From Polyangiales bacterium (GTDB taxonomy: Bacteria > Myxococcota_A > Polyangia > Polyangiales > JADJQN01): a DNA stretch of 64,000 nucleotides. Made by a program: the position numbers and the translations under genes. The notes beneath the pieces were generated by a model. It saw only the letters and a list, made by a program, of their open reading frames with translations. It ran no database searches and was not told where the DNA came from. Within the stretch, counting starts at the first letter, position 1. Each line of letters begins with the position of its first letter. Location: NCBI GenBank assembly GCA_964202905.1, contig CAXNJO010000004.1:192001-256000 (forward strand), written 5' to 3'. This document shows positions 3,223 through 27,577 of this stretch, piece by piece.

Positions 3223-4200
3223 ATGCGCGCGATGCTGTTCGCGGCGGGGCTGGGGACCCGACTGCGCCCGCTCACCGACGAGCGACCGAAGCCGACGGTA
3301 CCCGTCGCCAACCGGCCGCTCGCCGCGCTCGCGCTCGCGCACCTCGCGCACGCCGGCGTGCGGCGCGTCGTCGTCAACACCCACCACCTCGGTGCGGAAC
3401 TTCCCGGCCTGCTCGCGCCGCACACGCCGCCGGGGCTCGACGTCCGATACGTCCACGAGGCACGCCTGCTCGGGACGGGCGGCGGACTGCGGCACGCGGC
3501 ACGGGCGCTCCTCGTGGGCGCCGACGACGACGAACTCGTCGTGGTGATGAACGGGGACGTCGTGTTCGCGCCCGATCTGGCGCGCGCCATCGCGCACCAC
3601 CGCGCGATCGACGCGATCGCGACGATGATCGTGCGCGCGACGCCGGGCAGCGACGGACATGGCGCCGTCGAGATCGACGTGCGCAGCGGACGCGTCGGGC
3701 GTCTCCACCAGCGACCGGTGGCGGCGCCGCCCGGCCTCGTGCCGGTGACCTTCACCGGGGTGCACGTGTTGTCGCGGCGGGCGTTCGCGGATCTGCCGGA
3801 AGAGGGCTGCATCGCGCGCGCCGCGTACCGCCGCTGGATCGACACGGGCGAGCGCGTGGGCGCGGTGCTCGACGAGTCCCCGTGGCGTGATCTCGGCACG
3901 CTGCGGGAGTACCTGGACGGCAATCTCGACCTCGCGTCGGGCGCCCTGCGCTCCCCCTATGTGGGGGTGGGGGCGGCGGGCTCCCTCATCGCCGCGGGGG
4001 TGCGCATCCACGCGAGCGCGTCCCTCCAGCGCTGCGTCGTCGGCGCGGGGGCCGTCGTCGGACCAGGCGTCCGGCTCGAGGGCGTGGTCGTCTGGGACGG
4101 AGCCTGCGTGATGCGCGACGCGCGGGACGCCGTCGTCACGCCGCGCGGCGTCGTGGACCTCGCGGACGCCGGGCTTGCGGCGGCGGCCTCGAGCGGCTAG
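3223..4200 (+). CDS. NDP-sugar pyrophosphorylase (mannose-1-phosphate guanylyltransferase-like) with C-terminal left-handed beta-helix
   Basis: AAGLGTRLRPLTDERPKP, LGTGGG, VMNGD, WRDLGT; hexapeptide-like tail. Confidence 0.9.
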   Translation: MRAMLFAAGLGTRLRPLTDERPKPTVPVANRPLAALALAHLAHAGVRRVVVNTHHLGAELPGLLAPHTPPGLDVRYVHEARLLGTGGGLRHAARALLVGADDDELVVVMNGDVVFAPDLARAIAHHRAIDAIATMIVRATPGSDGHGAVEIDVRSGRVGRLHQRPVAAPPGLVPVTFTGVHVLSRRAFADLPEEGCIARAAYRRWIDTGERVGAVLDESPWRDLGTLREYLDGNLDLASGALRSPYVGVGAAGSLIAAGVRIHASASLQRCVVGAGAVVGPGVRLEGVVVWDGACVMRDARDAVVTPRGVVDLADAGLAAAASSG

Positions 4201-18517: not shown

Positions 18518-18859
18518 TCAGAGCGAGGGGATGAACGGTGCCTTGCCGGTCGAGGGGGTCTCGTAGGTCTTCTCGCTGCCATCTCGCAGGCGGATCTTCC
18601 AGAGCGTCTTGTGCTTCATCGCGCGGCCCTTGAGTTTCACGCCGCGCACCACGACGCTCGCCGGGAGCTGCATGTGAATGGCCTGCGTGGGGCAGACCTT
18701 GACGCACGCCGCGCAGTCCCAGCACTCGCGGTTGTCGCGGATCGCGGCCTTGCCGTTGGCCTTCAGGATCATGAGATCGCCGGGGCAATCGCGGACGCAC
18801 ATGGGCTCTTCCGCCGTCCCGCAGCCGTTGCACGCGCGCTCGTCGACGAAGATTCCCAT
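18518..18859 (-). CDS. aprB: Adenylylsulfate reductase beta subunit-like 2x[4Fe-4S] ferredoxin
   Basis: CNGCGTAEEPMCVRDCP and ECWDCAACVKVCP; TGATG coupling to aprA. Confidence 0.85.
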   Translation of the reverse strand: MGIFVDERACNGCGTAEEPMCVRDCPGDLMILKANGKAAIRDNRECWDCAACVKVCPTQAIHMQLPASVVVRGVKLKGRAMKHKTLWKIRLRDGSEKTYETPSTGKAPFIPSL

Positions 18860-20616
18860 CAGCCTTCTCCTCGCTGCACCACGCCCACGCCATCCGTCAG
18901 CGAGGGCAGCACGACCGCGAGCGGCGTCCGCACGACGGGGCGCTCGAGGACCTCGATGCGGCCATCGCGGGCACGCCGCGTGTTCACGAAGACCGTCCAG
19001 CGCGCGTCGTCGCGCTCCGGGTAGTCGAGGCGCTCCTGGTAGCAGTGCCAGCGCGTCTCGCGGCGGTGGAGCATGTGTTCGACGAGCACGCGCGCGACGG
19101 TCACGCGCTCAATCACCTCGTGACAGAGCATGAGCGCGTGCGGCTCGTCGGCGCGGAGGGCGGAGACCTCCTGTTCGAGCCGCTCGAGGTGCAGGCGCGC
19201 GATCTTCAGCTCGCCCTCGCTCGTGCCGTAGCCGACCCCGATGCCGCCGGCGTACTCGTCCATGATCTTCTGGAGGCGCTCTTCGAGGTCGGTGCACGAG
19301 AGGCCCTCGCTGTCCTCGAGGGGCGCGAAGACGCGGTCGCGCTCGGCGAGCACATCTTCTTCGTCGAGCTCGGGCGCCGCCGTCTGCGAACGCGCGTGCG
19401 CGATCATGTCGCGCACCGCGAGCACGGCCTCGGCCCACGCGCCGGAGGCATACTTCTTCGGCACGCCGCCCGCGACGTCGCCCGCGGCCCAGAGACCTTC
19501 GAGCGTGGTGCGGCGGCGCTCGTCGACCCAGTAGCCGCTGAGCCCGTGGCCGCCGACGACGAGCGGCTCGCCGCCCGTGATCTCGACGGGCGCCATCTCG
19601 CCACCGTGCTTCGCGTAGTAGGCCTCGTCGCTCATGATCATCGCGGCGGGCGGGGCCATCGAGAGATAGCTGCGGATGGTGCCCTCGAGCCGACGCGGGT
19701 TGACGCCGCCGAGGTCGAGATAGCAGGGCCCGCGGCCCGCGCGGCGCTCGAGCAGCGTCGCGTAGAGGCGGTCCTGCGTCGTCATGCGCTTTCCGCCGAG
19801 GTGCGCGTAGTACTTCTCGAGGTACTTCTCGCCGCGCGCGTTGATCTGATCGGCCTCGAGCCACTGCGCGATCTCGCCCGTCGGCGCGATGGCGTCCTTG
19901 ATGCGCAGCGGGATGAAGCGGTACTCGAACGACGTGAGCTCCGCGCCCGCGCGGAAGCCCATCGCGAGCCCGGCGCCCGTGTTGTAGGGCGAATACCACA
20001 TGCGGTGCGCGGCCATGCCCGGGTTGGAGGGGCGGTAGAGGCCGGCGGCGCCGCCCGTGCAGACGAGCACGGCCTTCGCCGCGACCGCCACGAAGCGACC
20101 GGTGCGCACGTGGAAGGCGTAGGCGCCGACGACGCGCCCGCGCCGCGTCGCGAGGCCCGTCACGTTCATGCGATTCAACACGCGCACGCCCGAGGCCTCG
20201 ACGCGCTTCGCGAGGATCGGCTTGATGCGCTCGCCGAAGATCTTCACCGACGCGCGCCCGCGCTTCACGGCGCGGCCGTGCTCGTCGCGCGCGATGGGCA
20301 GGCCCCACGCCTCGACGCGGTGCGACTGCTCGTTGAGCTCACGCGCCATCGAGAGCACGAGATCGTCGCGCACGACGCCGAAGGTGTCGCGCTGCACGTA
20401 GCGCAGGAACGACTCGGGCGTCTCGCCCTCGGTGAGATAGGCGTTGAGCGCGCTGATGCCCGCGGCGAGGCAGCCCGAGCGCTGGATGTGCGCTTTCTCG
20501 AGCAGCACGACGTCGAGGCCCGGGTCGCGCTCCTTCGCCTCGACGGCCGCGACGCAGCCGGCCGCGCCACCGCCGATCACGAGCAGATCGCACTGGAGGG
20601 ACTCGATGTCGATCAC
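18859..20616 (-). CDS. aprA: Adenylylsulfate reductase alpha subunit (FAD), clostridial/assimilatory-like
   Basis: GGGAAG FAD motif, RSGCLAAGISALNAY, MWYSPYNTGAG, FEYRFIPLRIKD, RRETRW; GAGGAG SD. Confidence 0.88.
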   Translation of the reverse strand: MIDIESLQCDLLVIGGGAAGCVAAVEAKERDPGLDVVLLEKAHIQRSGCLAAGISALNAYLTEGETPESFLRYVQRDTFGVVRDDLVLSMARELNEQSHRVEAWGLPIARDEHGRAVKRGRASVKIFGERIKPILAKRVEASGVRVLNRMNVTGLATRRGRVVGAYAFHVRTGRFVAVAAKAVLVCTGGAAGLYRPSNPGMAAHRMWYSPYNTGAGLAMGFRAGAELTSFEYRFIPLRIKDAIAPTGEIAQWLEADQINARGEKYLEKYYAHLGGKRMTTQDRLYATLLERRAGRGPCYLDLGGVNPRRLEGTIRSYLSMAPPAAMIMSDEAYYAKHGGEMAPVEITGGEPLVVGGHGLSGYWVDERRRTTLEGLWAAGDVAGGVPKKYASGAWAEAVLAVRDMIAHARSQTAAPELDEEDVLAERDRVFAPLEDSEGLSCTDLEERLQKIMDEYAGGIGVGYGTSEGELKIARLHLERLEQEVSALRADEPHALMLCHEVIERVTVARVLVEHMLHRRETRWHCYQERLDYPERDDARWTVFVNTRRARDGRIEVLERPVVRTPLAVVLPSLTDGVGVVQRGEG

Positions 20617-20629
20617 GCGTGCTCCTCGT

Positions 20630-21139
20630 TCACTCGACGCGCAGCGCGCCCTCGCGGAAGTCGTTCGTGCCCGGCACGTGCACCCAGAGCTTGCGGTCGA
20701 CGGCGCGCCCCTCGATGACGCTCACGACGAGGAACGCGCACGGCCACATCAGGGTGCCGTCGCTCGCGAAGGTGGCCGCGTCCTCCTTCGAGAAATAGGC
20801 GCCCGCGTCGCAGTGCGAGTGATAGATGACCTTGATCGGGCGGCCGCTCGCCTCGCCCGCCTCGAAGGCGCGCGCAGCCCGCAACTCGTTGATCTTGAAG
20901 TACATCCGGCTCGTCCGCGGGAAGCGTTCCGGGTCGAGCGCGTGGTAGCGGTCGGCCTCGTTGCGCTCGCGCACGCCCGCGTCGAGGCGCCCGGGATCGC
21001 CCGCAGGCCCGGAGAGGAAACCGCACGCCTCGCTCGGGTACTCGGCGACGGCGTGGGCCTCGACGTCCGCGAGGACCGTGGCGTCGATGGCGAGGTCACC
21101 GCGGATCCAGGCGCGCTCGCCCGTCTGCTCACCACTCAT
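20630..21139 (-). CDS. JAMM/MPN+ metalloprotease (Mec-like CysO-Cys peptidase)
   Basis: YPSEACG plus HSHCDAGAYFSKED (HxH-x7-S-x2-D). Confidence 0.9.
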   Translation of the reverse strand: MSGEQTGERAWIRGDLAIDATVLADVEAHAVAEYPSEACGFLSGPAGDPGRLDAGVRERNEADRYHALDPERFPRTSRMYFKINELRAARAFEAGEASGRPIKVIYHSHCDAGAYFSKEDAATFASDGTLMWPCAFLVVSVIEGRAVDRKLWVHVPGTNDFREGALRVE

Positions 21140-22073
21140 GGTGTTTCTCCCAGCGCCGCGGCGCGAAGTAGCGGTCCCCGCGATCGCACGCGATCGCCAC
21201 GATGCAGCCCGTCTCGCCGCGCGCCGCGAGGCGCCTCGCGAGCACGAGCGCGCCGTACGCATTCGCGCCCGTCGAGTGGCCGACGTGCAGGCCCTCATCG
21301 GCCGCGATGCGCTCGGCCATGTCCCAGCCGTCCTCGGTGCCGACGCGCAGGATCTCGTCGGGCACGCTCGCGTCGTAGATCGCCGGCACGATCGACGAGG
21401 CCATGTGCTTGAGCCCCTCGAGTCCGTGGAGCGCCTCCGCGGGCTCGACGGCCACGCACATGATCGGACGCGTGTGCTCCTTCAGGCGGCGCGTCGTGCC
21501 CATGATCGTGCCCGTCGTGCCGATCCCCGCGACGAAGTGCGTGACCTCGTCGCCGACCTGCTCGAGGATCTCGCGGCCCGTGCCGAGGTAGTGCGCGAGC
21601 GGGTTCGACGGGTTGGAGTACTGGTCGGGGTAGAAGTACTTGTCCGGGTCGCGCGCGACGATCTCGCGGCAGTGGCGGATGGCGCCGTCCGAGCCCTCCA
21701 TCGGGTCGGAGAAGATGAGCTCCGTGCCGTAGGCGCGCGTGATGTTCTTCCGCGCCTGGGAGACGTTCGCGGGCATCACGAGCGCGATGCGGTAACCGAG
21801 GGCCGCGCCGAAGAGCGAGTACGCGACGCCGGTGTTGCCGCTCGTCGAGTCGATGAGGGTGCGGTCCCGCGTGAGGCGCCCCTCGGCGATGGCATCCTGC
21901 ATCATGCGCAGCGCAGGGCGGTCCTTCACGGAGCCGCCCGGGTTCATGTACTCGAGCTTCAGGTAGAGCTTCACGCCGGGCGCCTCGCGCCCCACGTGGC
22001 GCAGCCGCACGAGGGGCGTGTTGCCCACGGCCTCCACGACGGAGTCCAGCCGGCGATCGAAGCGCTGGGTCAC
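21129..22073 (-). CDS. cysM: PLP-dependent cysteine synthase family protein (CysM-like, probably carrier-dependent)
   Basis: VGNTPLV, NPGGSVKDR, STSGNTG, DQYSNPSN, GIGTTGT, LEGLK; next to carrier and JAMM genes. Confidence 0.88.
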   Translation of the reverse strand: MTQRFDRRLDSVVEAVGNTPLVRLRHVGREAPGVKLYLKLEYMNPGGSVKDRPALRMMQDAIAEGRLTRDRTLIDSTSGNTGVAYSLFGAALGYRIALVMPANVSQARKNITRAYGTELIFSDPMEGSDGAIRHCREIVARDPDKYFYPDQYSNPSNPLAHYLGTGREILEQVGDEVTHFVAGIGTTGTIMGTTRRLKEHTRPIMCVAVEPAEALHGLEGLKHMASSIVPAIYDASVPDEILRVGTEDGWDMAERIAADEGLHVGHSTGANAYGALVLARRLAARGETGCIVAIACDRGDRYFAPRRWEKHHEW

Positions 22074-22083
22074 GGCCGCGGCC

Positions 22084-22413
22084 TCACCCTTCCTCGACGT
22101 CGAGGCGCAGCCCCGCCGGCCAGCGGCCCAGGCTGCCGACGCCGCTCAGCGCCTTGATCGTCTCGACCGCCGCGAACGCGCCGAGGAGCGCCGCGGCGGC
22201 CTCGCGCAGCCGCGGGTCCGCGACGAGGTCCGCCGGTGTCGCGCCCGGTTCGGAGATCGCTGGCCCCGCTGCATCGAAGGTGGTCCCGGCCCGCGCGAGG
22301 TAGCTGCGCGCGGTCTCGTCGGACGGCGCGCATGGCCGCGCGTCGCAGAGAGCGCGCTGCGCGGACTCGCCGAGCACCTGCACCTGCCGGACGAAGCGCC
22401 GCGGATCGCCCAC
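22084..22413 (-). CDS. Small degenerate MoeB/ThiF paralog (pseudo-E1), 109 aa
   Basis: RFVRQVQVLGESAQRAL, ARSYLARAG and GAFAAVETIKALSGVG resemble MoeB segments; no GxGxxG; GTG start 1 nt after the carrier stop. Confidence 0.65.
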   Translation of the reverse strand: MGDPRRFVRQVQVLGESAQRALCDARPCAPSDETARSYLARAGTTFDAAGPAISEPGATPADLVADPRLREAAAALLGAFAAVETIKALSGVGSLGRWPAGLRLDVEEG

Positions 22414-22414
22414 G

Positions 22415-22688
22415 TCAGCCCCCGGCGATCGCGGGGACGATGGAGAGCGACTCGCTATCCTTGAGGATGGTGTCGAGGTTGTCGAGGAAGCGGATGTCCT
22501 CGTCGTTCGCATAGAGGTTGACGAAGCGGCGCACGCCTTTTTCGTCGCAGAGGCGGTCCTTGAGGCCCGGGTGCGCGGCGCTCGAGCGCGTCGATGATCG
22601 CGCGCACGGTGCCGGCGGCGACCTCGACCTCGTCCTTACCCTGCGTGAGCGTGCGGAGCGGCGTGGGGATGCGAACGATCACGGACAT
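22415..22688 (-). pseudogene. cysO: MoaD/CysO ubiquitin-like sulfur carrier with a 1-nt insertion (possibly assembly error)
   Basis: [17 protein letters not shown]...DALE, then after removing one base near 22581: [54 protein letters not shown]; 274 nt = 91 codons + 1. Confidence 0.9.
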
Positions 22689-22737
22689 CGGGTTTCTCCT
22701 GGGAATGCGGGGTCGAAAGGGGGGAGGCTGCGCGGGT

Positions 22738-23496
22738 TCAGGCGCAGTCGGGCACGCGGTAGTCGTCAAGCGAGAGCGCAGGGACGCGGCCCGCGCAGAG
22801 GGGGCAATCGGCGCGGCGGCGCAGGCGGGTCCGACGCACCGCGCCGCGCAGGCCGTCATAGCGCCAGAGCACGCCCGCGGCGTGTGTGTCGCCAGCCGCG
22901 AGGCGGAGGGCGAGGACGGCCTCGAGCGCGCCGAGCACGCCGACGACCGGGCCGATGACGCCGGCCTCCGCGCACGTCTCGGGGGGCGCGGCCTGGCCTC
23001 CCTGCGCGGCGAGGCGGGCAGGGAGGTCCTCGAAGACGCAGCGGAGACACGCGCTCACGCCGGGCACGCTGGCGAGCGCCCAGCCCGCCCAGCGCACGCA
23101 CCCCGCCTGCACGGCAGCGACGCGCGCGCGGGCGCAGGCGTCGGCGACGAGGAACTTCGTCGCGAAGTTGTCCGCGCCCTCGACGACGAGATCGACATCG
23201 GCGAGCAGCGCGAGCGCACGATCGGGCGTGAAGCGCGCCTCGACGCCCTGCACCGCGACGCCCGAGGCCGCCGCCTCCGCGAGGGCGCGCAGCCGCGCCA
23301 CGGCCCGCGCGACCTTCGGCGCGCCGACGTCGGCTTCGTCGAACAGCGTTTGCCGGTGGAGGTTCGAGCGCTCGACGACGTCGTCGTCAACGACCGTCAG
23401 CGCCGCGATGCCCGGCGCGCACGCGAGCAGGTGAAGCGCGGGTGCGCCGAGGCCCCCCGCGCCGACCACCAGCACGCGCGCGCCGCGGGCGCTCAC
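22738..23496 (-). CDS. HesA/MoeB/ThiF family adenylyltransferase lacking the N-terminal RYxRQ segment
   Basis: VLVVGAGGLG, SNLHRQ, CLRC, TCAEAGVIGP, CPLC; GTG overlaps the cysK stop; no rhodanese domain. Confidence 0.9.
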   Translation of the reverse strand: MSARGARVLVVGAGGLGAPALHLLACAPGIAALTVVDDDVVERSNLHRQTLFDEADVGAPKVARAVARLRALAEAAASGVAVQGVEARFTPDRALALLADVDLVVEGADNFATKFLVADACARARVAAVQAGCVRWAGWALASVPGVSACLRCVFEDLPARLAAQGGQAAPPETCAEAGVIGPVVGVLGALEAVLALRLAAGDTHAAGVLWRYDGLRGAVRRTRLRRRADCPLCAGRVPALSLDDYRVPDCA

Positions 23497-24434
23497 GCCG
23501 GGGGGCTCCGGAAGTAGGTGTCGAGGCTGAAGTAGCGCTCCCCCGTGTCGCAGAGCACGCAGACGACGTTCTTGCCGGGGCCGAGCTCCCGCGCGAGCGC
23601 CAGGGCGACGACGACGTTCGCGCCCGCGCTGATGCCGACGAGCAACCCTTCCTCGCGGGCGAGACGCTCCTTCATCGCGTAGGCCTCGCGATCGCCGACC
23701 GTGCGGATCTCGTCGACGACGCCCCGATCGAAGTTGTCGGGTACGAAGCCGGCGCCGATGCCCTGGATTTTCGTGGGCCCGGGCTCGCCGCCGCTCAGCA
23801 CGGGGCTCTGCGCGGGCTCGACGGCGACGATGCGCGTGCCGGGGCGCTCGGCCCGCAGCACGCGCCCGACGCCGCTGATGGTGCCGCCCGTTCCGACGGC
23901 CGCGACGAAGGCGTCGAGGGAGTCGTCGGCGAAGCGCTCGAGCAGCTCGCGCGCCGTCGTCTCGGCGTGGCGCGCCGGGTTCGCGGGGTTCGAGAACTGC
24001 ATCGGCATGAACGCGCCCCGCTGCGCGACGAGCTCTTCGGCCGCCTCGATCGCGCCCTCCATCACGCGCTCGGCCGGCGTGAGGATGATCTCGGCGCCGT
24101 ACGCCTCGAGCAGCGCGCGCCGCTCGAGCGACATGCTCTCCGGCATCGCGAGCGCGAGTTTGTAACCCTTGACCGCGCAGGCGAGGGCGAGTCCGATGCC
24201 GGTGTTGCCGCTCGTCGGCTCGACGACCAGTTGCCCGGGTCGGAGCGTCCCCGCGCGCTCGGCGGCCTCGATCATCGCGAGCCCGACGCGGTCCTTGACG
24301 GAGCCGCCCGGGTTGAACTGCTCGGCCTTGCCCCACACCGTCGCGCAGCCTTCTTCGACGACGCGACGCAGCCGGATCACGGGCGTGGCACCCACGAGAT
24401 CCAGCACGCTCTCGACGACTTGTGCGCTCCCCAT
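23493..24434 (-). CDS. cysK: Cysteine synthase A
   Basis: NPGGSVKDR, EPTSGNTGIGLA, MPESMSLERR, QFSNPAN, KIQGIGAGF, DTGERY. Confidence 0.95.
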   Translation of the reverse strand: MGSAQVVESVLDLVGATPVIRLRRVVEEGCATVWGKAEQFNPGGSVKDRVGLAMIEAAERAGTLRPGQLVVEPTSGNTGIGLALACAVKGYKLALAMPESMSLERRALLEAYGAEIILTPAERVMEGAIEAAEELVAQRGAFMPMQFSNPANPARHAETTARELLERFADDSLDAFVAAVGTGGTISGVGRVLRAERPGTRIVAVEPAQSPVLSGGEPGPTKIQGIGAGFVPDNFDRGVVDEIRTVGDREAYAMKERLAREEGLLVGISAGANVVVALALARELGPGKNVVCVLCDTGERYFSLDTYFRSPPA

Positions 24435-24449: not shown

Positions 24450-24911
24450 TCAGATGACGTACACGTATTGGCCCGCGCCCCGCCGCCGCAGGCCGAGCGC
24501 CTCGCCGCGCTCGACGAGCTGGGCGAACGTGACCGCGTCGAGCGCCGCGTCGATGCGCTCGCCGACCTCGCGGAACGCCTGCTCGGTCACGCCGAGGCTC
24601 GTCGGATCGACGGCGTCGCCGATCTCTCCGGACTCCGGGGAGGCGAGGTCGATGGGCCCCTCGAGCGCACGGACGACATCACCGAGCGTGAGCGCCTCCG
24701 GCTCGCGCGCGAGCTGGTAGCCCCCGCGGGGACCGCGCTTCGAGGTCACGATCCCCGCACGCTTGAGGTCTTGGAAGATCTGCTCGAGGAAGCGGGCCGG
24801 GATGTCCTGGCGCTCGGCGATGTCCTTGATCTGCGTGGCCTTTCCGTCGTTGTGGAAGGCGACGTCGAACACCGCGCGGACCCCGTATCGACCCTTGCTC
24901 GAGAGCTTCAC
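24450..24911 (-). CDS. Rrf2-family regulator, CymR-like (no Cys, ends YVYVI)
   Basis: MKLSSKGRYG, FLEQI, SKRGPRGGYQLAR, LEGP. Confidence 0.92.
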   Translation of the reverse strand: MKLSSKGRYGVRAVFDVAFHNDGKATQIKDIAERQDIPARFLEQIFQDLKRAGIVTSKRGPRGGYQLAREPEALTLGDVVRALEGPIDLASPESGEIGDAVDPTSLGVTEQAFREVGERIDAALDAVTFAQLVERGEALGLRRRGAGQYVYVI

Positions 24912-25771: not shown

Positions 25772-27577
25772 ATGCGCGTGTGCGAGTCGTGTCGGTCGCG
25801 CTTCAAGGACGGCGCGACGGTGTGCCCGCTCGACGGCGGGCGCCTGCTCGAGCTCCCCGATCCGCTGATCGGGCGGACGATCTCCGGGCGCTACACCGTG
25901 CTCGAGAAGCTCGGCGCAGGCGGTATGGGCACCGTCTACCGCGGGCGGCACGACGTCTTCGAGCGCGACCTCGCGCTGAAGTTCCTCGCGCCCGAGCTCG
26001 CGCACGACGCGGTCAGCCGCGCGCGCTTCCTGCGGGAGGCGCGCGCCGCCAACCGCATCCAGCACGAGCACATCATCGAGGTCACGGACTTCGGCGAGAC
26101 CGACGACGGCCTCGTCTACCTCGTGATGGAGTACCTCGACGGATGCCCGCTCTCGCGCGCCATCGCCGAGGGGCCCATGCCGGTCTCGCGCGTCCTGCCG
26201 ATCACGATCCAGCTCGCCTCGGCGATCGCGCGCGCGCACGAGTTCGACGTCATCCACCGCGACATCAAGCCGGACAACGTCTACCTCGTCGATCGGGACA
26301 ACGACCCCGACTTCGTGAAGGTCCTCGATTTCGGCATCGCCCACATGAAGGGCGATCTCCGGCTCACGGCGACGGGCACGGTGTTCGGAACGCCCGAGTA
26401 CATCGCGCCGGAGCAGGCGCGCGGCGCGCCGCTGACGCACGCCGTCGACCTCTACGCCGTCGGCTGCGTCTTCTTCGAGATGGTGACCGGGCGGCTGCCG
26501 TTCCGCGGGAGCACGCCCGAACTGATCGTCAAACACATCCGCGAGGCCCCGCCCCGCCCCTCCTCGCTCGTCGCGGAACTCCCGCCCCTCGTCGATGAGA
26601 TCGCGCTGCGTCTCCTCGCGAAGGACCCCGCCGCGCGCCACCGCGACGGCTACCACCTCCTCGACGATCTACGGCGCCTGCAGCGCGCCTTGGCGCCGGC
26701 ATCGAGCCGTGTGCCCGCCACGCCTCCGCGCCGTGCCTACGCGGGGATCATGCCCGCGGTGTCCATCGATGCGGCGTCGATGCGGCCCGCTGCGGCACAG
26801 CTGCCCACGACGCGCGCGCACCTGACGCTCGACGCGGCGCACTGGTGGTCCGAGCGCGCGACGTTGCTGCGCACGCTGGTCCAGCAGGCGCACCCGCGCG
26901 GCGACATGCCCGAGTGGCTCGGTCGTGCCGTCGCGGAGGTCGAGGCGGACGCGGCGACGCTCGCGCATCACCGAAGGAACCTCGCTCACCTCGCGCAGCG
27001 GAGCGCGGAGACGGAGCAGCGAGCCCGCGAGACGCGGCTGCGCATCGGGCGTGCGCTCGACGAACTCGTGAGCGACGAATCGCGCGCCGCCCGCGCGCTC
27101 CGGGAGTTCGAGAGCCGCGCAGAGGGCACACACAGCCGGCTGTCGGACGTCGAGCGTCCACTCGCGGAATCCTGGGAGTCCCTGCGCCGCGCGCAGGCGG
27201 GCAACGCCGCGATCTCGGTCGAGCTCGCGAATGCCCTCCGCGAGACGGGCGCGCTCGCGTCAGCGTGGCTCGAACTCGCCCGCGCCGATCACGCGGTCGC
27301 CCGTGAGCTCGCCGAGCGGCGCCGAGAGCGCGAAGACCTCGGGTTCCAGGTCGCGCAACTCAAGGGCCGCCTCGGCGCGATCCAGGCGGAGGCCGAGCAC
27401 GAGCTCGGGACGTTGCGCGCCGAGAGCGCACGCCTCGACTCGGCGTCCACGGCGTTGGGCGATGCGCTCGCCCGCCAAGCGACGCCCATCGTCCAGCACC
27501 TCGTCCAGTGGCCCGCGCTGCGCGCGGCGCTCTCGTTCGGCGGCACGCAGCCTGGCAGGACCGCCGCCGCGCGTTGA
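25772..27577 (+). CDS. Ser/Thr protein kinase with N-terminal Zn-ribbon-like segment and C-terminal coiled coil
   Basis: CESC...CPLDG; GAGGMG, ALK, HRDIKPDN, DFG, GTPEYIAPE; no TM segment seen. Confidence 0.95.
   Translation: MRVCESCRSRFKDGATVCPLDGGRLLELPDPLIGRTISGRYTVLEKLGAGGMGTVYRGRHDVFERDLALKFLAPELAHDAVSRARFLREARAANRIQHEHIIEVTDFGETDDGLVYLVMEYLDGCPLSRAIAEGPMPVSRVLPITIQLASAIARAHEFDVIHRDIKPDNVYLVDRDNDPDFVKVLDFGIAHMKGDLRLTATGTVFGTPEYIAPEQARGAPLTHAVDLYAVGCVFFEMVTGRLPFRGSTPELIVKHIREAPPRPSSLVAELPPLVDEIALRLLAKDPAARHRDGYHLLDDLRRLQRALAPASSRVPATPPRRAYAGIMPAVSIDAASMRPAAAQLPTTRAHLTLDAAHWWSERATLLRTLVQQAHPRGDMPEWLGRAVAEVEADAATLAHHRRNLAHLAQRSAETEQRARETRLRIGRALDELVSDESRAARALREFESRAEGTHSRLSDVERPLAESWESLRRAQAGNAAISVELANALRETGALASAWLELARADHAVARELAERRREREDLGFQVAQLKGRLGAIQAEAEHELGTLRAESARLDSASTALGDALARQATPIVQHLVQWPALRAALSFGGTQPGRTAAAR

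Follow-up and report, generated by a model that had tools for sequence, protein, structure and literature searches.

Whether a single E1-like enzyme can be divided between two genes is the question raised by a locus on the minus strand of a 64,000-nucleotide stretch of a Polyangiales bacterium genome (GenBank assembly GCA_964202905.1, contig CAXNJO010000004.1, positions 192,001 to 256,000; referred to below as the window). The locus encodes a ThiF/MoeB-type adenylyltransferase from which the N-terminal segment with the RYxRQ motif is missing and, on the far side of a gene for a small sulfur carrier, an open reading frame (ORF) of 109 amino acids (aa) that carries such a segment and lacks the catalytic motifs of the family (Table 1). 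The arginines at issue, Arg11 of ThiF and Arg14 of MoeB, are described as arginine fingers donated by the neighboring subunit (PMC13139853). In our assessment the product of the small ORF, here termed the mini protein, and the truncated ThiF probably constitute a two-gene, asymmetric bacterial E1. The explanation that best accounts for the evidence, and to which we assign a probability of roughly 0.6, is that the mini protein is a catalytically dead pseudo-E1 of ThiF/MoeB type, which pairs with the truncated ThiF as the second protomer and completes its ATP site.

The truncation of the operon ThiF is apparent from both the gene and its product. The GTG start codon (23496-23494) overlaps the TGA stop of cysK (23495-23493), the stretch RVLVVGAGGLG begins after six residues, and the 252-aa translation matches the Pfam ThiF profile only from position 20 of 238 (178 bits). 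As the alignments with the Escherichia coli enzymes begin at residue 29 of ThiF and residue 30 of MoeB, about 28 N-terminal residues, RYxRQ among them, are missing, and the motif is also absent from the in-frame sequence upstream of the start codon. The P-loop and the SNLHRQ, aspartate and CxxC motifs are all retained, and the invariant columns of a 17-sequence ThiF alignment include the glycine-rich loop, R48/Q49, K61, D109, C150/C153 and C231. The operon enzyme is a ThiF family member with its catalytic motifs and without the N-terminal arginine-finger segment, and the operon ThiFs of related genomes lack the same segment. The truncation is specific to the operon copy, since the same genome also encodes, outside the window (G000:C4:266156-266866, locus L035), a protein with an N-terminal rhodanese and a full-length MoeB domain, which carries RYARH and matches Pfam positions 1-238. 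This housekeeping rhodanese-MoeB might also serve the carrier, either as its sulfur donor or as a substitute activator.

The mini ORF begins with a GTG codon one base past the TGA of the carrier gene, and its product contains the stretches RFVRQVQVLGESAQRAL, ARSYLARAG and GAFAAVETIKALSGVG. The parts of the family that are kept comprise the N-terminal helices, the first Rossmann element in degenerate form (YLxRAG) and the dimer helix (GAFAAVETIK); neither the protein nor an alignment of 28 homologs contains the glycine-rich loop, SNLxRQ, the catalytic aspartate or the zinc-binding CxxC. Judged by its sequence, the mini protein is a relative of the ThiF/MoeB family and not a working member of it, and the division of labor expected of an asymmetric E1 is found here, in that the motifs of the ATP site, as read from the alignments, are absent from the mini protein and kept in ThiF. 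A first-pass annotation of the window, made from the sequence alone, had described a ThiF that starts almost at RVLVVGAGGLG, overlaps the cysK stop and lacks RYxRQ, and an ORF that contains the three stretches quoted above and is devoid of P-loop, SNLxRQ and zinc motifs; the translations, the Pfam match starting at position 20 and the 28-sequence alignment bear out this description in every particular.

Across the 28 aligned homologs, the invariant residues are R8, G14, L21, Y37, L38, R40, G42, G77, A81 and V82 (R8 in the numbering used here, that of P0001, being R9 when the start codon is counted). The arginine of the RQ/RH motif is retained in 28/28 sequences, with variation at the neighboring positions, and the N-terminal consensus of the family reads RRRYARQLLLxEIGExGQERL. 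A contig from one public sequencing run (X1) has C in place of A at window position 22323, which would replace Ser30, in a variable loop of the mini protein, by Ala. Among 20 listed sequencing runs, no RNA run containing the sequence appeared; the organism, an uncultured environmental relative of the myxobacteria, occurs in lake water.

Spurious ORFs are frequent in GC-rich DNA and the mini protein belongs to no Pfam family, so that a functionless chance frame, or the decaying remnant of a duplicated ThiF, has to be considered. We regard this as hardly credible in view of the conservation of sequence, length class and position over many genera, including a lower-GC genome of 2.7 Mb, and in view of an excess of changes at third codon positions, a confident structural model (below) and the size of the family. 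In a single-sequence search of 41 related genomes, the ORF was found in the same slot in related Polyangiales and Myxococcota. Between two pairs of close mini genes, the changes at codon positions 1/2/3 number 4/5/16 and 8/9/25, and the changed codons divide into synonymous and nonsynonymous ones as 15:8 and 20:15. A profile of the mini family, searched against 1.84 billion representative sequences, matched 2004 at E≤0.001, of which 258 reach E≤1e-10 and 31 reach E≤1e-30, and the best 150 matches all measure 93-210 aa. A second database contributed 322 proteins at E≤1e-5; among the best 120 of these, nearly all names given are ‘hypothetical protein’, as are the names in ten distant clusters of the family apart from one ‘predicted trehalose synthase’, so that the public annotation is as the first-pass annotation had anticipated for gene callers. 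Fused or longer forms of 278-2000 aa were not found at E≤1e-8 among 8000 scored candidates, which is weak evidence that they do not exist.

A Pfam/NCBIfam scan of the mini protein returned no family, and PF00899 (ThiF) was not matched at E≤1; a match to DUF7793 (15 bits against a cut-off of 26) was taken as noise. None of 12 representatives of the mini family exceeded any Pfam cut-off, three gave sub-threshold matches to PF00899 (12-15 bits), and one database homolog bears a precomputed PF00899 label. Against sequences of known structure, the mini profile matched the N-termini of E. coli ThiF (PDB 1zfn, E = 5.4e-6), Uba4 (3.7e-5) and MoeB (PDB 1jw9, 6e-5). In the alignment with ThiF, residues 2-67 of the query correspond to ThiF 3-67 and a second stretch, 89-109, corresponds to the late helix at 198-218; the invariant arginine of the mini protein is placed on the arginine of the ThiF RYSRQ motif, Arg11. 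From these comparisons, the mini ORF is a real, constrained gene related to ThiF and MoeB.

The AlphaFold2 model of the mini protein is mostly helical, with a predicted local distance difference test (pLDDT) score of 91 and a predicted template modeling (pTM) score of 0.82. Structural alignment of this model with VIA-align gave Z scores of 7.3 for MoeB (root-mean-square deviation 3.2 Å over 103 aa), 7.1 for APPBP1, 7.1 for MccB, 6.9 for SAE1 and 6.6 for ThiF, with about 100-103 of the 108 mini residues covered for each E1 chain. The top 36 rows all belong to the E1 superfamily, and the next row has a Z score of 3.0.

If the mini protein serves the truncated ThiF, the two genes should be found together, and this is illustrated by a cross-tabulation of a Pfam ThiF search with the mini-profile search over the same 41 related genomes. 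An operon-type ThiF without the RYxRQ segment is present in 26 genomes, and all 26 also have a mini gene. The ThiF class was assigned from a Pfam match starting at position 9-25 in 24 genomes and at position 4-5 in G017 and G014, the former lacking RYxRQ by eye and the latter being classed by match start alone. The mini gene lies 400-1100 bp downstream of ThiF, on the same contig and strand, in 24/26 genomes; in G019 a divergent copy was recognized by eye between the carrier and JAMM peptidase genes (E = 2.7e-4 with filters off), and in G003, a fragmented assembly, the gene shares a separate contig with those for the carrier and CysM. The 15 genomes without an operon ThiF gave no full-coverage hit, the hits there being the N-termini of housekeeping enzymes of ~400 aa and two short partial matches (G004, in a 366-aa frame; G023, at a contig end), and an intact full-length ThiF/MoeB match is found in 38/41 genomes. 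A second set consists of 20 further CysO-like carrier loci across the phylum, which were hand-picked, several of them for a nearby profile hit, and do not represent a random sample. In this set, an RYxRQ-bearing ORF directly follows the carrier gene in 9/10 operons with a truncated ThiF and in 0/9 ThiF-less operons (rrf2-cysK-carrier-cysM-JAMM or variants), in which the gaps between carrier and cysM, computed for eight of the nine, are 16-78 bp. The co-occurrence is given as plain counts because kin are not independent. Since it is seen in both sets, the ThiF and mini genes are gained and lost as a pair, despite the carrier gene that lies between them.

The same data bear on a different function for the mini protein, as an adaptor that bridges the operon ThiF to the JAMM peptidase, to CysM or to the rhodanese-MoeB protein as a possible sulfur donor, without completing the ThiF site. 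Such a role would suit the mini ORF of genome G001, which continues in frame into the JAMM gene, as well as the one family of genomes (G240, G300, G285 and G369) that manages without a mini protein; moreover, the operon ThiF has no rhodanese domain, and the sulfur donor must therefore come from elsewhere. However, the mini gene tracks ThiF and not JAMM or CysM, as none of the nine ThiF-less carrier-CysM-JAMM operons has one, and in G035 it comes immediately after ThiF, in a neighborhood where the queries used detected no gene for a carrier, CysM or JAMM. We therefore consider an adaptor improbable.

The predicted structure of the complex is in agreement with a pairing of the mini protein and ThiF. 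A prediction from our own alignments of ThiF (17 rows) and the mini protein (28 rows), together with ATP, conditions that depart from those under which the score was calibrated, gave an interface score (ipSAE) of 0.91 in all three runs, compared with 0.00 for the best of three controls; in the calibration, the mark for this score was reached by 116/157 solved complexes and by 2/215 mismatched pairs. The contacts agree to at least 97% between runs, and the partner has a pLDDT of 90. The lowest predicted errors are found between ThiF 183-194 and mini 71-82, in the contact pairs 187/78, 190/75, 183/82 and 194/71 (ThiF/mini). As G77 of the mini protein aligns with G189 of ThiF, the pairs 187/78 and 190/75, and likewise 183/82 and 194/71, are mirror images of each other, and the mini protein in the predicted heterodimer therefore sits at the place of a second ThiF protomer. 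Residues 2-13 of the mini protein, which include the invariant arginine, touch ThiF 43-50 (RSNLHRQT) in the predicted complex, with mini residues 4-9 among those in contact. On this basis we infer a contact between the arginine and ATP.

Occupation of the dimer helix would also be expected of a negative regulator, which competes with homodimerization of ThiF and holds it in a less active, one-site form; the predicted mini site is the helix that would form the ThiF homodimer, and the mini protein lacks all catalytic motifs. Such a role is very unlikely in our view, because the mini gene is translationally coupled within a biosynthetic operon, at a fixed position and with its start 1 nt past the carrier stop, because its product brings exactly the segment missing from ThiF, and because known inactive E1 halves are activating partners.

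The mechanism that we propose for an asymmetric E1 is as follows. The mini protein would be a much-reduced, catalytically dead ThiF/MoeB paralog that replaces the second protomer of the ThiF homodimer. The conserved late helix (mini 63-86, facing ThiF 175-206) would mediate the pairing, about a pseudo-two-fold axis, and the N-terminal helices of the mini protein, with the arginine equivalent to ThiF Arg11 and MoeB Arg14, would be laid against the phosphate-binding SNLHRQ stretch of ThiF. This would yield a 1:1 heterodimer in which a single ATP site is complete and a single site binds the carrier; we infer this stoichiometry, and with it a requirement of ThiF for its partner, be it for activity or for stability. 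The CysO-like carrier, once adenylated by this heterodimer, would feed a thiocarboxylate-dependent route to cysteine catalyzed by the CysM-like enzyme, and would be freed or processed by the JAMM peptidase. The first-pass annotation had proposed that the two proteins are complementary and form an asymmetric E1, and had pointed to profile comparison, gene co-occurrence and complex prediction as ways to examine the proposal. The outcome of each favors it: the N-termini of ThiF, Uba4 and MoeB were matched at E values of 5e-6 to 6e-5, truncated ThiF and mini gene occur together in 26/26 against 0/15 genomes, and the prediction, run with ATP, reached an ipSAE of 0.91 with the arginine-bearing segment against RSNLHRQT, so that the proposal is now supported by homology, co-occurrence and a modeled complex.

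Several observations weigh against a finger-donating second protomer. The copy in the window and that of a congener have the most degenerate N-terminal motif of the family, RFVRQVQV-LGESAQ compared with the consensus RYARQLLLPEIGEAGQ. Truncated ThiF can also exist without a mini partner, because the family mentioned above (G240, G300, G285 and G369, in two genera) has a truncated operon ThiF and no pseudo-E1 genome-wide at E≤1; at the G240 locus (L095) none was found even with filters off, and there is no room for one. Foldseek returned nothing at E≤0.001 for the mini model against the PDB (E values of 0.4 or more), and the VIA-align Z scores near 7 are middling, below 8, with the central sheet absent from the mini fold. 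The score of the complex shows likeness rather than binding and may reflect a memory, within the prediction model, of solved ThiF and MoeB homodimers; the departure from calibration conditions counts here as well, and the prediction output gave no ligand contacts. Finally, the finger is reported to be non-essential in ThiF and MoeB, and the R59A variant of yeast Tcd1 to have little effect (PMC13139853), so that supplying the arginine may not be the key role of the mini protein.

The last point leads to a reading in which the heterodimer is real and the mini protein acts mainly as a structural cap, covering the hydrophobic dimer helix and stabilizing or solubilizing ThiF, with the arginine adding little to catalysis. 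The finger is reported to be dispensable in ThiF/MoeB and in Tcd1, and Tcd1 is described as necessary for Tcd2 to be stable and soluble (PMC13139853). The lowest-error predicted contacts are helix-helix pairs and do not involve the N-terminus, and invariants specific to the mini protein, such as R40 in YLxRAG, fall in the interface list. Nevertheless, the RQ/RH arginine is kept in all 28 sequences amid variable neighbors; even the most reduced forms retain it, as do the divergent types of G019, G035 and G323, and we consider a mere cap possible, albeit unlikely. A heterodimer of ThiF and the mini protein is the likeliest picture, and its value may lie in the finger, in stability or in control by a single site.

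Compared with the mini protein of the window, the partners encoded in some related genomes are considerably larger. In G421, the slot of the mini gene is occupied by an inactive ThiF paralog of 229 aa, which keeps RYARQ and has neither the glycine-rich loop nor SNLxRQ; it shares 30% identity over 256 columns (E = 1e-17) with the MoeB domain of the genome's own, MoeZ-like rhodanese-MoeB protein, and passes the Pfam ThiF cut-off (40.7 bits) through its C-terminal half. The partners in G275 and G122 measure about 150 aa and retain part of the second Rossmann element, and in those of G019, G035 and G323 the first strand-helix-strand is more recognizable and the arginine is kept. Within the order to which the window belongs, the partner is mostly 100-130 aa long, and the invariant arginine is present even in the most reduced forms. 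As far as sequences allow, this size series has the appearance expected if an inactive protomer decays step by step. Simple fission of a ThiF gene, with the mini protein as its severed N-terminus, was rejected, because the mini protein has a degenerate first Rossmann element of its own and repeats the dimer helix, which is still present in ThiF. We would place at even odds a scenario in which an asymmetric E1 of two genes, serving a metabolic sulfur carrier, arose in the Myxococcota separately from those of eukaryotes and the Bil systems, the inactive protomer having been whittled down from ~230 through ~150 to ~110 aa, to a core that holds no more than an E1 requires of its partner, the arginine-finger helices and the dimer helix, in a lineage that preserves living intermediates between the symmetric ThiF/MoeB homodimer and an obligate one-site heterodimer.

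Two further variants were observed among these loci. In G275 and G122 (L086:about 3810-4090, minus strand; L087:about 3815-4065, plus strand), an extra small ORF with the pattern ...KRVYLT.PA.L.REP... lies between the carrier gene and the ~150-aa pseudo-E1, and presumably resembles a NIL-type domain. In G001, which belongs to the same genus as the window genome, the mini ORF runs into the JAMM gene with no stop codon and no cysM between them on two contigs (L002:3-512, minus strand; L013:3001-3504; L014:460-1233), an arrangement that may be a naturally occurring fusion or may involve an internal restart.

The carrier gene of the window is read in two frames owing to one extra base at about 22580 (22575-22585), a feature absent from the first-pass annotation, which at first sight suggests a pseudogene operon. 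This was ruled out, as contigs from three public sequencing runs (two studies) have one base fewer at 22580 and are otherwise identical there, and as the carriers of related genomes, of about 90 aa, are intact and are matched by the window carrier when it is read without that base. The likeliest source of the frameshift is a surplus base in the assembly, and the operon is therefore not decaying. The window carrier stops exactly at GG. Many related carriers run 1-4 residues beyond it (GGS, GGAAR, GGSWHG; loci L005, L006, L009, L010 and L016-L024), an extension which, from the sequences, fits processing by a JAMM peptidase. At L015:1889-2944, ThiF and carrier share one open frame without an intervening stop, and may be fused in that metagenome-assembled genome.

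The operon as a whole consists of seven tightly packed genes on the minus strand, with stop and start codons that overlap or nearly abut (Table 1). It unites a carrier ending in GG, a CysM-like enzyme dependent on pyridoxal 5'-phosphate (PLP) and a JAMM peptidase, and is thereby an operon of the CysO-CysM-Mec+ type; the Rrf2 gene is syntenic in related loci. The CysM-like protein scores 328 bits with the NCBIfam cysM model (cut-off 394) and 330 bits with cysKM, in both cases below the equivalog or subfamily cut-off. As a gene for the alpha subunit of adenylyl-sulfate reductase adjoins the JAMM gene, the whole locus has the look of a sulfur-assimilation island. Elsewhere in the window, a 601-aa ORF on the plus strand (25772-27577) has an N-terminal part that resembles, by eye from its translation, a Ser/Thr protein kinase domain.

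Table 1. Genes of the operon and its downstream neighbor, in window coordinates.
Feature	Position	Strand	Basis
Rrf2-family transcription regulator	24450..24911	-	Pfam Rrf2 127.7 bits (cut-off 30); heads the conserved cluster
CysK-type cysteine synthase	23493..24434	-	NCBIfam TIGR01139 cysK 401 bits (cut-off 351); Pfam PALP
N-truncated ThiF/MoeB-type adenylyltransferase, proposed active subunit	22738..23496	-	Pfam ThiF 178 bits
CysO/SAMP1-like sulfur carrier, C-terminus AIAGG	22415..22688	-	Pfam ThiS and NCBIfam SAMP1 matches in the C-terminal part
Putative mini pseudo-E1, 109 aa	22084..22413	-	Sequence; conservation; ThiF/Uba4/MoeB profile match; fold; predicted complex; codon-position pattern
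CysM-like PLP-dependent cysteine synthase	21129..22073	-	Pfam PALP 211 bits
JAMM/Mec+-type metallopeptidase	20630..21139	-	Pfam Prok-JAB 53 bits (cut-off 25); start codon ATG overlapping the cysM end
Adenylyl-sulfate reductase alpha subunit	18859-20616	-	NF005331 717 bits (cut-off 557); directly downstream of the JAMM gene

Carriers of ThiS/MoaD type encoded in an operon with a cysteine synthase and a JAB peptidase are known from the mycobacterial CysO-CysM-Mec+ system and from types 4c and 4d of Iyer et al. (2006), in which the E1 is fused to a rhodanese or encoded elsewhere, and the account of these types mentions no truncated E1 with a small partner (PMC1779556). In a full-text search of the literature, no account of a truncated ThiF paired with such a partner came to light either. 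With the E. coli pairs ThiF-ThiS and MoeB-MoaD, the locus shares the adenylation domain, the zinc motif and the type of carrier, and the mini protein matches their N-termini and dimer helix; in contrast, ThiF and MoeB are symmetric homodimers in which each protomer donates its own RYxRQ, a segment that is found here on a separate, reduced protein.

Closer in architecture are the eukaryotic E1s SAE1-UBA2 and NAE1 (APPBP1)-UBA3, in which an inactive and an active adenylation subunit share one ATP site per dimer and the inactive half supplies the arginine. The mini model aligns with SAE1 and APPBP1 over ~103 residues (Z scores of 6.9 and 7.1). The inactive subunit of the eukaryotic enzymes exceeds 300 aa, compared with 109 aa here and about 100-235 aa in relatives; the locus described here also has no catalytic-cysteine domain, ubiquitin-fold domain or transfer to an E2, and it acts on a sulfur carrier that serves cysteine synthesis. 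An arginine from the inactive half is also described for NAE1-like enzymes in PMC10557695, in the context of BilD, the E1 of the Bil antiviral ubiquitination system. In BilD, an inactive and an active half form a pseudo-dimer, whose single site is completed by Arg9 from the inactive half; in contrast to our locus, both halves are full-size parts of one polypeptide with a CYS domain, which acts with an E2 in phage defense (PMC10557695). An E1 that combines an inactive with an active half is thus already known from bacteria, in the single chain of BilD, and the bacterial E1-like proteins other than BilD are all presented as homodimers in that source (PMC10557695). Compared with BilD, the two halves are here encoded by two genes split by a carrier gene, in a metabolic operon and with a minimal inactive half. 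A third precedent is the yeast Tcd1-Tcd2 dehydratase, which forms cyclic N6-threonylcarbamoyladenosine (ct6A) in tRNA; this ThiF-family heterodimer also relies on an inactive member, Tcd1, which gives the Arg59 finger and is needed for the stability of Tcd2, and differs in that both proteins are full-length with C-terminal domains, the setting is eukaryotic and mitochondrial, and the substrate is a tRNA (PMC13139853). What sets the present locus apart from these precedents is the combination of two genes, a metabolic sulfur-carrier operon and a minimal inactive half.

E1 enzymes are thought to have begun as symmetric, ThiF/MoeB-like homodimers and to have become asymmetric later, in eukaryotes. 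If our interpretation is correct, the locus would provide a naturally occurring example of E1 asymmetry on two genes, small and tractable, in ordinary sulfur metabolism, and its relatives, which span the range from full-length to minimal partners, would allow tests of what an inactive half contributes, be it the finger, stability or control by one site. Several hundred small proteins that are at present called hypothetical would gain a family name, and the finding would improve the annotation of CysO-type cysteine operons.

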